Shown: positions 1,599-5,574 of the stretch, piece after piece
Layout of the letters: every line of letters starts with the position of its first letter
Position numbering within the stretch: the first letter of the stretch is position 1
NCBI RefSeq assembly: GCF_038025025.1
Contig: NW_027117345.1
Location: 1,674,001 to 1,738,000, forward strand
Origin: Phyllosticta citribraziliensis
Taxonomy: Eukaryota
Direction of reading: 5' to 3'
DNA: 64,000 nt
Program-made: the position numbers and the translations under genes
Notes under the pieces: generated by a model
The model's database searches: none
Told to the model about the DNA's origin: nothing
The model's input: only the letters and a program-made list of their open reading frames with translations

Positions 1599-2159
1599 GA
1601 TGTGGCGATGATGAGGCTCAAATAGGTCGAGATGGGGTAGGGCGAAAGAATGGCAGGTGAGTGTTGAGGTGATGCGAAAGGTGGTGGGATGGACAGGCTC
1701 TGAGTGGGCAGTATGGAAAAACATTGACCACCAAACGAAGTAATTGCTGTCGCCCTCCAGGCGCAACGCCGGCGCCTGTTTTGACCCTAGCCTCGACAAG
1801 ATAGGCCTCTTCTTCCATCAACACTGTATGGACCAACCTCGACATTGGACAGTAATTCCCACATGATGGAATTATCTGAGTTGCCTGCAGGTACGTGAGC
1901 TTTACCGCGAGCCACGTGGCGTTCGTATCAAGGAGAGAAAGCAAATACGATTCGAGACTGAAGATGACAGCAAGGAAACTTCCACCGGCTCCTGGGCCTT
2001 TCGTCGAAACGCAAACCACTCTGGGATATTGAGCACAGCTCATCCGGTGCAAAGCGCTATTGCGCCAAAACACTTCTTTCAGCGGATCTCTCTCCCCAAA
2101 CAAAGAAATTGCGGCCCAGGCTCTTGAAACTTGTCGTAAGGTCATGAATCATTCATCCC

Positions 2160-2547
2160 TCATATGGGTATCGCATTACTGACAGCGCCACTTGTATCAG
2201 CAGGCGCGGCGAGCATCCTGTCCGGTGTTAACGAGTGCCCTTCGACGAGAATCGCACGGCTTACTTCTTGCCCGCGTCTGTGGCACAACATCCACAGAGG
2301 AGCGACGCTGGCCAACACACAACGGCCAGGCACACGGCGACGGCGAATCCAATCGTGGGGCCGACAACTTTACAATGGCAAGGGTTTTGGTTGCTGGCAA
2401 GGATTGATCAGGTCCACATTCCGCTGGAGGTCATTGAAGAGGCTGCATACGTTCCGCACTGGAAGCAGACAATCTGAAGAATTTGTTAGGCCCAGGACGT
2501 TTCAAAACAAGGCGCAAACGACTTACAGGAAGCGGGATACAATCCAT
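2160..2547 (-). CDS. 76-aa cysteine-rich small membrane protein, 4 coding exons
   Basis: Exons 2547-2527, 2473-2451, 2393-2265 and 2217-2160. Three GT-AG introns (53, 57, 47 nt) with branch sites splice in frame to MDCIPLPIVCFQCGTNQNPCHCKVVGPTIGFAVAVCLAVVCWPASLLCGCCATDAGKKMLAAPADTSGAVSNAIPI*. Confidence 0.85.
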
Positions 2548-3656
2548 ATTTGCAAGAGGAAAGCTGAAGCTGGGCAGGAACGAGCACCGCGAGAGTGAAT
2601 TCCAACGAAACGGGGCAACAAGAGAACGCGATCACCAACAGAAACACCAGCACAAGGTTGCTGGAAGAGAGAGGTAAGGCGTAGGTCGTGAGCTGATGTT
2701 GGAATTGAACGCCTACTGACGTCATGCCATGGTTTAACCGAACGCGCTAGCATATTGATAGGAAGCAGCTCCGAAATCCCCGACAGAGCAACACCACAGA
2801 AGCATCGCGTACTACTGCCAGCGGCACCTTCGGAGAGCCTCTTCTGCAATTGGAATACAGAGCAGACACTGGGAGCGACCCTTCTTTCAATGCCACCATG
2901 CCTTGGGAAAGGGATCACTTGGCAAAAACCACCCAAGCGAAACGCAACTCTTGCGGCGTGCTAGACTGAGGTGCTGGATAGGACAAGCGTGAATCCTACA
3001 GTCGTTGACACAGCAAAGTTTGAGACCATCGACTTGATTGGACTGGGACATCCTGGAGGCCAAACATCAACACCGGCAGAGAGCGCTTCGGGGTCGCCGT
3101 CGATCTTGGGAGCCGGACGCGGGACGGCTGGCAGTGATCGAGCCGGCGGATCAAACGGACGGGTGAGGACAGCGAACTCCCGAGCGCCTCCGCTACCTCC
3201 GTGGAGCACATGTGGTGGAGGAGACTGACGCTTGTTTTTATTTGGTCGGCACTTGAACCCCAGCAAACCAGTGACCACAGCGCGGGCCGTTTCCACTCCA
3301 GGCTCGATACGAGCGCAAGAGGCTTGGGGGACACCTCTACGGCCGCTCCTTATGGGAAAGCGGCAAAAAAGCGTGGCCGCGGCTCGATTACTCATATGCT
3401 GGACCTGCTCCTTTTCGGCATCGCCGACACACCCTGGATGTGACCATGACCATGTTTGTGGGCATTGTGTGGTCTTCTGCGCCGATGGCTCTGTGATTTC
3501 TCAACTCTCTCGGCCATTAAACCCTGCGAGAAACCCCGCGGGGGCAGAGTCCGGCATCAAAAACAAGAAGAAAAAATGAATCTTGTATCGCAGCCCGGGC
3601 ATGGTAAACCACCCGGAAGCCTGGCAGTGAGACATCCTAGCCTCACTGTATGCTGG

Positions 3657-3664: not shown

Positions 3665-3786
3665 TCTGGCGTGTCACAGATCCTTTGAAGCAATTTCGGA
3701 AGGCTTGTTCGAATCCAGTCGCAGTCATCTTTCTTTGAACCTCTGCCCCTGAGTGTTTTTCTAGAGTATTTGAAAGATTTACAGAC

Positions 3787-5574
3787 ATGGCCAACGACGA
3801 TGAGAGGAATACGACGCCGGATAGTCCACATGTAAAGCAAGATCATGACCGGCTGTCTCTCGACGTTGAAAAGGCCAGTTTGAGCGTTGGGGAAGACAAC
3901 AACAGCAACCCACCAACAGTGTCCTGGGATGGCCCCGATGACCCAGAAAATCCACGCAACTGGAGTCACTTGAAGCGTGCGGTGGTTACGGGTGTGATAG
4001 GCCTGGTGGCATTCATCGTGTAAGTGACGTGCCTATCCATCACTTTCGACATCCAAGTAATAAGCACATCCAGCTCCCTCGGGTCCTCTGCCTACACACC
4101 AGCAGTGTTCGAGATTAGAGAGAAGTTCAACGTATCCACAACCGCTGCTCTCCTCGGCCTTTCCCTCTACGTCGTCGGATTGGCCTTTGGGCCCATCATG
4201 GCGGCGCCAATCAGCGAGACGGCAGGACGCAACGTCGTCTACATCACCACCTTCCCCGTCTTCATGCTCTTCACCATGGGCGCCGGGTTCTCAGATTCGT
4301 TCGGATCGTTGCTGGTGTGCCGTTTCTTTGCAGGCTTCTTTGGCGGGCCGGTCATGGCCGTCGGCGCAGGGAGTGCTGCGGACATGTACGCGGATCGGTG
4401 GCAGATTGTTGGCACAGCGGCGTACATAACATGGCCTTTTTTGGGTCCGTCATTAGGGTACGCAGTGGCATCTCTCATCCCCGTCCAAGCCTTTCAAACA
4501 CGACACTGACCATTCGAACAGGCCCATCGTCGGGGGCTTCGTCGCCGAGCACAAAGGCTGGCGCTGGACGCAATGGACCATCCTGTTCGGAGCCCTTCCA
4601 ATCTACCTGATGACGCTCTGCATCCCCGAGACGTACGAGAAGACGCTCATGAAGCGCCGCGCCAAACAACGCGGCTTGCCTCCGCCCCGCAGAGAATATG
4701 AAGGCGCCGCCGCCCTCAAATTCTTAATCTCGGTCACGCTCATCCGGCCGATGCACATGCTCCTCGTCGAGCCGATTGTCACGTTCATCAGCTTCTACTG
4801 CGCCTTCTGCTTTGCCGTGCTCTTTGCCTTCTTCGAGGCGTACCCGCTCGTGTTTGGCGGCATCTACGGGTAAGTGACCGAAGACTCCATCGCCTTCGTT
4901 GTGTCGCCATCCAGACTGACCTTCAGCACAGCATGTCGCTCTCGCACGGCGGACTTCCCTTCCTCGGCATCGCAGTCGGCGTGCTCATCGCCGTCGTAAC
5001 CGCGCTCTGGGTCGACGAGAAGTGGTACCAGCCGCAGCGGCGGGCAGCGCTGGCGGCGGGCAAGAAGCAAGCGGCGCCCGAGCACCGGCTGTACGTAGCC
5101 ATGATGGGAAGCCTGGGGATGCCCGTGGGACTCTTTTGGTTTGGGTGGACGGCGCGCGCCGACGTGTCGTACTGGAGTCCCCTGCTGGCCGGCGTACCTT
5201 TCGCCTGGGGCACCATGGCCATCTTCATCGGCACCAGCAACTACATGGTCAACACGTACGGCCCGCTGACGTGCGCGAGCGTCTTTGCCGCCTTTGGCTT
5301 TGTGCGTTACGTACTGGGTGCTGCTTTCCCGCTGTTTACCATTCAGAGTACGTCTCGTTCTGTCCCATCACTTTTCTTTCTCTCCTTTTCCACCGCCTTG
5401 TCTGCGCATAATGCTAACCAAATAATCCCCACAGTGTACACAAACCTCGGTGTCGACTGGGCGTCGAGCCTCTTAGCCTTCATCTCGCTTGCGCTACTGC
5501 CAATCCCCTGGGTGCTGTTCAAGTGGGGCCCCAAGATCAGGTCCATGAGCCGCTACGACACAATTGCAGACTAG
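3787..5574 (+). CDS. MFS drug:H+ antiporter (DHA1 family), 5 exons
   Basis: Exons 3787-4019, 4074-4457, 4522-4869, 4932-5347 and 5435-5574 splice in frame. Motifs VSWDGPDDPENPRNWS, GPIMAAPISETAGR, RFFAGFFG, PEHRL and C-terminal PIPWVLFKWGPKIR; many TM segments. Confidence 0.93.

Follow-up and report, generated by a model that had tools for sequence, protein, structure and literature searches.

A transcribed four-exon micro-gene of Phyllosticta citribraziliensis encoding a predicted single-pass membrane protein of a family found in fungi and green plants

The stretch of DNA analysed here (64,000 nucleotides of Phyllosticta citribraziliensis contig NW_027117345.1, hereafter the window) carries near its left end, on the minus strand, a gene of four short exons that encodes a cysteine-rich 76-residue protein. 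A scripted join of the exons (Table 1) yields a single 231-nt frame of 76 codons followed by TGA, and the product contains 10 Cys. The gene is missing from the list of stop-to-stop open reading frames (ORFs) because only exon 3 appears there, as a 48-aa frame at 2261-2407. Its existence had been proposed from the letters alone, and the exon arithmetic (21+23+129+58 = 231), donors, acceptors and branch-like sites are all as claimed. The branch-like sites CTAAC, CTGAT and TTAAC lie near the 3′ ends of the three introns, and all acceptors are AG. A protein-guided spliced aligner written for this analysis placed the identical three introns in the same phases (0, 2 and 2), at residues 7, 15 and 58. 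The start codon has A at -3 and G at +4, and no ATG occurs between 2654 and the start codon. When the 76-aa Aplosporella prunicola protein P0003 ('uncharacterized protein K452DRAFT_234248') was compared with the window by tblastn, all coding parts were matched in order, residues 1-8 at 2547-2524 and residues 58-76 at 2219-2163 with 95% identity. The same search gave no convincing second copy in the 64-kb window, where the gene is thus single-copy.

None of the sequencing runs with matching DNA is recorded as RNA (the kinds assigned to them are guesses), and four of the seven runs were compared over positions 1900-3000. Run X1 contains a contig of 1952 nt that matches the window without a difference and aligns in four pieces, 1900-2216, 2264-2393, 2451-2473 and 2527-2654. 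The gaps between these pieces measure 47, 57 and 53 nt and have CT..AC ends on the plus strand, hence GT..AG on the minus strand; an equally good cut for the first joint lies one base further on. In run X2, which comes from a different study, a 1499-nt contig shows the identical 47-nt gap at intron 3. Because both contigs lack exactly the introns, they are cDNA-derived whatever the library label. All three exon joints for which junction reads had been called for (2526/2474, 2450/2394 and 2264/2218) are therefore present in one X1 contig, and 2264/2218 is also found in X2. No sequence of run X3 aligned over 1900-3000. The locus is almost certainly a real, transcribed and spliced gene, its membership of the family described below included. 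A further intron suggested in the 5′ untranslated region (UTR), at about 2662-2721, has no support: the X1 contig ends at 2654, neither X1 nor X2 covers 2677-2787, and no contig bridges the segment. Since contigs do not reveal transcript starts, such an intron may still exist.

Table 1. Features of the micro-gene and its divergent neighbour (positions in the window; X1 and X2 are the sequencing runs described in the text).
Feature	Position	Strand	Description
Exon 1	2527..2547	-	21 nt; ATG at 2547-2545; codons 1-7; X1 contig covers 2527-2654 and joins 2527 to 2473
Intron 1	2474..2526	-	53 nt; GTAAGT..CAG; phase 0, residue 7; skipped by X1 contig
Exon 2	2451..2473	-	23 nt; carries the C-x2-C pair; X1 contig piece 2451-2473
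Intron 2	2394..2450	-	57 nt; GTATGC..CAG; phase 2 in codon 15; skipped by X1 contig
Exon 3	2265..2393	-	129 nt; N-P-C-x-C-K motif, G-P-T membrane-helix start, W-P, C-G-C-C cluster
Intron 3	2218..2264	-	47 nt; GTAAGC..CAG; phase 2 in codon 58; skipped by X1 and X2 contigs
Exon 4	2160..2217	-	58 nt; C-terminal tail ending I-P-I; stop TGA at 2162-2160
5′ UTR	2548..2654	-	at least 107 nt, as far as the X1 contig reaches; contigs cannot show the true start
3′ UTR	1900..2159	-	minimum; X1 and X2 contigs colinear over 1900-2216 and continue past 1900
Divergent MFS transporter gene	3739..5574	+	MFS_1 match (E 7.6e-13) on 4024-4509; neighbour, outside the micro-gene

Related DNA-like contigs, 90-99% alike and reading through the introns, were obtained from run X7. 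Counting the differences listed within 2160-2547 (24 further ones are unlisted, and the comparison is supporting evidence only), at least 6 fall in the 231 exonic nt versus at least 19 in the 157 intronic nt. The six listed exonic differences comprise four synonymous changes, one stop-to-stop change and one N16D substitution, Asp being the commonest residue at position 16 among the homologues. The micro-gene is shown to be under purifying selection.

The micro-gene contigs of X1 and X2 run 1354 and 1124 nt past position 1900, over a same-strand ORF at 686-1240 (the span is about 550-2159). This minus-strand ORF is Pro/His-rich, gives a sub-threshold Zn_clus match (E 0.0078) and has no counterpart in 80 related metagenome loci. 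The extension reflects read-through or a 3′ UTR of great length, or else overlapping transcripts that were merged in assembly.

The 48-aa translation of exon 3 (P0001) retrieved 11 homologues with E-values from 2e-20 to 1e-14. Nine of them are 76-78-aa Dothideomycetes proteins called 'uncharacterized' or 'hypothetical', and the remaining two are a named partial protein of 61 aa, from a further dothideomycete, and a 50-aa fragment without a name. The window product and P0003 are identical at 72 of 76 positions (differences N16D, A32G, C36V and A52L), with the same length, Cys pattern and C-terminus. A profile built from nine fungal members (A1) and searched over 1.84 billion cluster representatives matched 175 of these at E<=1e-3 and 73 at E<=1e-10. 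A second profile, built from 32 diverse members (A2), matched 361 proteins at E<=1e-3. With this profile and with one built from the most divergent members (A4), plant and fungal members were retrieved together at E 1e-27 to 1e-33. A hand count of the best 120 of the 361 A2 matches gave 73 land-plant names, 22 fungal names, 2 eukprot-coded algae and 23 unnamed entries. The plants range over Amborella, monocots, eudicots, Cryptomeria, Sphagnum and Ceratodon, and their database names include 'Cold-regulated protein' in many cases and 'Little protein 1' in Vitis, Manihot and Turnera.

The A4 profile added Saitoella (Taphrinomycotina), the chytrids Caulochytrium and Geranomyces, the chlorophytes Chlamydomonas schloesseri and Raphidocelis, and also Closterium and Diphasiastrum; three streptophyte algae are in the family. 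Its matches include many Eurotiomycetes (Aspergillus, Penicillium, Talaromyces, Histoplasma, Nannizzia and others) and the Leotiomycetes Botrytis, Monilinia, Lachnellula, Cadophora and Pseudogymnoascus; among the matches listed, the Sordariomycetes are represented by Apiospora and Monosporascus. Moreover, a plant member (P0069, Punica) matched exon 3 of the window directly by tblastn (E 1.5e-7), and the nearest ESM Atlas clusters belong to Ascomycota (0.94) and, at rank 2, to Streptophyta (0.93). The plant relatives suggested in the original prediction were thus retrieved by the family profiles, from land plants and from streptophyte and chlorophyte algae. No animal, basidiomycete or Saccharomycotina name occurs among the best 120 matches listed per search, which does not establish absence. 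By sequence comparison, the family is one shared by fungi, chytrids included, and Viridiplantae, chlorophytes included.

Several members of 77-100 aa (among P0257, P0285, P0222 and P0292) bear implausible source names, such as 'polyol transporter 2' in Lecanosticta acicola and Aspergillus fumigatus or 'CWF19-like protein mug161' in Elsinoe australis. These names, and the 'LITAF domain-containing protein' of Nannizzia gypsea, are probably propagated annotation errors. Pfam backs none of them among the members scanned.

A hydropathy plot (Kyte-Doolittle, 19-residue window) peaks at 2.3 around residues 24-47. The AlphaFold2 model, computed from 103 aligned sequences (mean predicted local distance difference test score 85, predicted template-modelling score 0.64), contains strands 12-13 and 22-23, which form a β-hairpin, and helices 25-47 and 54-73. 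The frame, the Cys count, the hydropathy peak and the predicted helix all agree with the 76-aa, 10-Cys membrane peptide of the original prediction, and the product is very probably an integral membrane protein. The β-hairpin carries four Cys (C-x2-C ... C-x-C), and the G-P-T-x-G start of the helix follows three residues on. Six residues are invariant in the 103 aligned members (C20, G26, P27, P43, P63 and P75 in P0003 numbering), and at least 90% of the members share C10, C13, G14, N18, P19, K23, T28, G30, F31, A38, W42, G56 and I74. The common head, present in the window product, reads C-x2-C-G-x(4,5)-N-P-C-x-C-K-[VI]-[VI]-G-P-T-x-G-F. In the clade consensus it is followed by ten hydrophobic residues, an aromatic-Pro pair and a tail that contains a single invariant Pro and ends hydrophobic-Pro-hydrophobic; the window product carries W42-P43, P63 and I74-P75-I76 at these places.

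Two positions distinguish the branches of the family. Residue 41, just before the W/Y-P pair, is Cys in Pezizomycotina and chlorophytes, whereas it is Glu in streptophytes. The segment after the helix is a C-x-C-C type cluster in Pezizomycotina (C-G-C-C in the window), whereas land plants have a basic R/H/K stretch there. The window product shows neither the Glu before W-P nor the basic post-helix segment of land plants; its Cys before W-P and its C-G-C-C cluster identify it as the fungal subtype. C22, the last of the four head Cys, occurs in 50-90% of the Pezizomycotina rows.

Searches for a described domain or fold were negative. Pfam gave nothing above its curated cutoffs for P0001 and 39 distinct full-length members, and profile A1 matched PDB sequences at chance level only (E 0.45). 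Foldseek found no PDB match to the AlphaFold2 model at E <= 0.001, and an exhaustive VIA-align structure search returned generic helical hairpins only (best Z 4.6). Restricting the ESM Atlas search to named clusters gave a best score of 0.77 and no family. The peptide is less novel than had been supposed: the family has no Pfam model and no known fold, but dozens of fungal genomes annotate the protein, the plant branch is named, and one rice member has been studied.

The intron architecture of relatives was examined in metagenome contigs from JGI, which supplied 80 fungal- or plant-type loci; clustering these at >=95% nucleotide identity across the gene gave 49 groups. The spliced aligner, which reproduces the window model exactly, was applied to 31 cluster representatives, 30 fungal-type and one plant-type (L041); these are homology-based models made without RNA. 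A complete ATG-to-stop model, as in the window, was obtained for 22 of the 30 fungal-type loci. All 30 have a phase-0 intron after residue 38, which the window gene lacks, and 26 share with the window the phase-2 intron in codon 58. The phase-2 intron in codon 15, again present in the window, occurs in 6/30 loci, and a phase-1 intron at residue 30, absent from the window, in 8/30. Finally, the intron after residue 7 of the window gene was found in none of the 30. This pattern indicates a putative lineage-specific intron loss (residue 38) and gain (residue 7) within a coding sequence of 231 nt. Every fungal-type locus has two to five introns, and intron lengths range from 44 to 131 nt across the 32 models, window and L041 included.

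Such intron density accounts for the poor state of the family in databases. Compared with profile A3, the 150 listed A1 representatives comprised 30 that match end-to-end, 6 that do so with an insert and 114 partial sequences. These counts are not an error rate, since aberrant models are over-represented among representatives chosen at 50% identity and many of them are fragments. The breaks cluster around A3 profile positions 31-34, 39 and 58-62.

The best spliced model for one locus (L069) starts at a codon other than ATG and is interrupted by an in-frame stop within the Cys cluster after the helix, which may point to a pseudogene copy or to an error of assembly or modelling. The L041-L045 cluster encodes a plant-type protein, with Glu before W-P and a basic post-helix segment, and has one modelled intron near the N-terminus. 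L041 lacks the introns that the fungal genes have at positions 38 and 58, which hints that intron positions are not common to the plant and fungal branches (one plant-type locus was modelled).

A maximum-likelihood tree was built from 56 named rows and 76 columns, as had been suggested for a family shared by plants and fungi, and each side of it follows roughly the order of the organisms. On the fungal side Caulochytrium is followed by Saitoella and then by an exclusive Pezizomycotina clade (97/92*); on the plant side the chlorophytes are followed by an exclusive streptophyte clade (97/86*). The Dothideomycetes group together (98/95*), with the window adjoining Aplosporella. One join crosses the kingdoms, that of Geranomyces with Chlamydomonas, and it was flagged as a long-branch pair (95/30). 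In the approximately unbiased (AU) test, holding all fungi together costs 26 log-likelihood units (p-AU 0.143) and an alternative grouping of the deep long branches has p 0.419; neither arrangement is rejected. With only 76 columns, the deep branch order is beyond resolution.

A horizontal transfer from plant to fungus or from fungus to plant, which had been raised as worth testing, has to be weighed against these data. Fungal and plant proteins are 40-47% identical over their full length, which is high for such distant lineages and speaks for a transfer, and so does a patchy distribution in which no animal, Saccharomycotina or basidiomycete name occurs among the matches listed; the p of 0.419 for the alternative deep arrangement also leaves room for it. 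However, the distribution gaps rest on the best 120 matches per search and are not established, and the grouping of all fungi is not rejected either. Moreover, two chytrids, one taphrinomycete, two chlorophytes and three streptophyte algae carry the family, and on both sides the branching order is organismal, with Pezizomycotina and streptophytes forming exclusive clades. A transfer of this kind is therefore not favoured and is improbable; a transfer between stem lineages is judged equally so. Since neither kingdom nests in the crown of the other and early-diverging lineages of both carry the gene, old vertical descent accompanied by losses is the likely history.

The only two Sordariomycetes rows, Apiospora P0220 and Monosporascus P0271, which we take to be Xylariales, nest in a dothideomycete (Pleosporales-like) group (99/93*). 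Their placement may reflect an intra-fungal transfer or the poor resolution of a 76-column alignment.

A neighbouring gene of the micro-gene encodes an MFS transporter. The divergent arrangement described in the original prediction is confirmed by an MFS_1 match on the plus strand, the two genes lying about 1.2 kb apart. Between the two genes, the micro-gene contig stops at 2654, facing a 2775-nt X2 contig that begins at 2799 and extends rightwards towards the MFS gene, and an X1 contig that begins at 2823. This suggests a compact bidirectional promoter of about 150 bp and an MFS leader of about 1 kb; contigs cannot prove starts.

In such an arrangement the micro-protein could be a dedicated accessory or trafficking subunit of its MFS neighbour, co-expressed from a bidirectional promoter and aiding export, stability or gating of the transporter. 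The divergent position of the MFS gene and the facing contig ends at 2654 and 2799 are in keeping with this, as is an orthologous divergent MFS gene in six metagenome loci (L023, L049, L060 and L073, and, with shorter flanks, L047 and L065). However, among the 25 distinct loci with >=3 kb upstream only four keep the pair, at a distance of 1.1-1.6 kb. In an all-against-all tblastx comparison of the window and 31 loci, the bin containing the micro-gene was matched by 26-31 other sequences (13 for the plant-type L041), and flanking bins were matched by at most 9. Across the loci the gene is thus conserved alone and not within a cluster, which makes a dedicated MFS partnership unlikely. Plants and algae, moreover, have the small protein but show no sign of such a neighbour, the plant loci examined being one moss-like metagenome cluster. 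Taken together, these data leave the MFS-subunit explanation very little credit.

Published work on the family concerns its plant members. In the passages available, a review equates little protein 1 with SALP1, a plasma-membrane located and potentially osmoregulatory protein, and OsSALP1 is cited as raising rice salt tolerance via OsP5CS and proline (PMC8558194, PMC12819948, PMC11122936). A table of drought-up-regulated microRNA targets in Physcomitrella includes 'Little protein 1' (PMC5054160), and another table identifies Os01g0644200 as SALP1 (PMC12757826). Reference lists name Yuan et al. 2016 as the primary OsSALP1 paper (PMC10179023) and, in a 2026 paper on pea RCI2, include a related rice study of a 'little membrane protein'. 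Searches under SALP1 and little protein names found no literature on a fungal family member. Two names of 'SALP1'-like spelling are unrelated: tick Salp15, and 'SalP1', a sample label in PMC9904508.

The explanation we favour, with a probability of about 0.55 as a whole, is that the product is a small single-pass, stress-related membrane regulator of the SALP1-like family. It would be a non-enzymatic integral membrane protein, probably inserted post-translationally; co-translational targeting is difficult for proteins this short. According to the positive-inside rule, the flank richer in Lys and Arg (K+R) faces the cytosol. Mean K+R after versus before the helix is 1.82 versus 1.31 in 49 Pezizomycotina rows (48 database proteins and the window product) and 4.08 versus 2.65 in 62 land plants, which favours an N-out/C-in orientation, weakly so in fungi. 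We consider this orientation of the helix somewhat better than an even bet. The four-Cys hairpin would then sit at the membrane surface in an oxidising, extracytosolic compartment and form a knob locked by disulfides. In fungi, the Cys cluster would be exposed on the cytosolic face and putatively S-acylated; juxtamembrane Cys clusters are typical S-acylation sites. Sorting factors or partner proteins in the cytosol may bind the extreme C-terminal tripeptide. A fixed helix-helix contact with a partner could be made by the invariant G-x3-G at the start of the helix and by the W-P kink. The protein would act not alone but as a regulatory or adaptor subunit modulating membrane, ion or osmotic stress tolerance. 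The stress-related role itself, put forward by homology with the rice member, is tentative.

Several observations weigh against this explanation. The link to OsSALP1 consists of shared database names (Vitis, Manihot, Turnera) and one sentence of the review, and the putative stress function of the fungal protein is read from its relatives. Fungi and land plants differ exactly at the post-helix segment and at residue 41, and for this reason function may have diverged between them. The occurrence of C22 in just 50-90% of Pezizomycotina rows weakens a four-ligand or two-disulfide model, and the K+R bias is small in fungi. The AlphaFold2 model packs the tail helix back onto the membrane helix; if real, this packing would put both ends of the protein on one side and contradict a single pass. 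It may be an artefact of bilayer-free modelling, because the tail segment 54-73 is not hydrophobic (mean hydropathy about -0.1, with a moderate hydrophobic moment). Finally, the STRE-like motifs AGGGG and CCCCT do not occur in 2548-3300, compared with 0.83 per kb each across the window.

The main rival is a metal-handling protein. In this alternative the peptide would be anchored N-in and display a zinc or copper knuckle to the cytosol, with C41 and the C-G-C-C cluster adding thiolate ligands, and would buffer, sense or transfer metal. Ten Cys in 76 residues are suggestive of such a role. All clades have the four head Cys, three of them at >=90%, and the AlphaFold2 β-hairpin that bears them resembles zinc knuckles. 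One member (P0292) is named 'LITAF domain-containing protein' by UniRef and another gives a sub-threshold GRF-like zinc ribbon match (E 0.067). However, the K+R bias favours N-out, C22 is not strictly kept by fungi, and the Cys cluster after the helix is missing from land plants. Moreover, zinc-finger and metallothionein Pfam models stay below cutoff in all 39 full-length members scanned, and no metal-related neighbour is conserved across the compared loci. We regard metal handling as unlikely on this evidence.

A bolder interpretation starts from the age of the family. An ancient protein of about 75 residues, predating the split between fungi and green plants, might be a small subunit, so far missing from view, or an obligate regulator of some conserved membrane machine. 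Such a fixed partner, for instance a transporter, a pump or a trafficking complex, would account for the 40-47% identity kept over more than a billion years and for the near-invariant head, G-P-T-x-G helix start, W-P kink and C-terminal tripeptide, and the family would have been overlooked on account of the two to five micro-introns that break most automatic gene models. In a still bolder variant, the amphipathic tail helix would be packed as in the AlphaFold2 model and an oligomer would form a small ion-conducting assembly. We hold the missing-subunit idea to be doubtful.

The micro-gene is a clean case of a transcribed gene invisible to ORF-based views, with four exons of 21-129 nt and a 76-aa protein, and automatic pipelines frequently mis-model it. 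The family to which it belongs lacks a Pfam model and a solved or recognisable fold, yet its conservation between fungi and green plants is above that of most membrane proteins of this size. New here are the explicit cross-kingdom family with its defining motifs, the differences between fungal and plant subtypes, the conserved intron positions, and the evidence that speaks against both a recent transfer and an obligate partnership with the MFS transporter. Should the fungal members work as the rice protein does, they would give access to the tolerance of filamentous fungi, many plant-associated ones included, to salt, osmotic stress and cold, and genetically tractable fungi could reveal the mechanism that plant work has not provided.

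The favoured regulator can be compared with several known systems. RCI2/PMP3 proteins are very small, cold- or salt-induced membrane proteins common to fungi and plants, with two membrane helices and no Cys knuckle. They (PF01679) serve as a working analogy only and are not homologous: neither PF01679 nor CYSTM (PF12734) matched any of the 39 full-length members or P0001 at E-values up to 1-10. The likeness to LITAF/BRI3 proteins is one of layout, with a Cys knuckle placed directly against a hydrophobic segment that contains Cys and a conserved Pro and is followed by Cys-Cys. BRI3 (PF10164) was matched below threshold by one of 32 members (P0029, Saitoella; E 0.011, 16.7 bits against a cutoff of 25.9) and by neither the exon 3 translation nor P0003. 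LITAF proteins are defined by a second knuckle, H-x-C-x2-C, after the hydrophobic segment. This knuckle is absent from the alignment, in which fungi have C-x-C-C after the helix and land plants no conserved Cys. The LITAF model of Pfam matched none of the 32 members at E <= 10, and for the Nannizzia protein named after it (P0292) Pfam gives a chance-level zinc-ribbon match only.

Closest of all are the relatives within the family. The 75-80-aa 'hypothetical proteins' of other Pezizomycotina (Elsinoe, Aureobasidium, Zymoseptoria, Alternaria, Botrytis, Aspergillus, Penicillium, Histoplasma) are products of the same gene, none with a described function. The plasma-membrane, salt-tolerance, proline and OsP5CS data belong, in the passages available, to the rice member only. 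The plant proteins known as Little protein 1, SALP1 or 'Cold-regulated protein' have the same size of about 70-80 aa and the same head, C-x2-C-G...N-P-C-x-C-K-V-V-G-P-T-L-G-F. Little protein 1/SALP1 also has the W-P in the helix, the invariant Pro of the tail and the hydrophobic-P-hydrophobic C-terminus, and differs from the fungal protein in the Glu that land plants carry before W-P and in the basic R/H/K stretch that replaces C-G-C-C.

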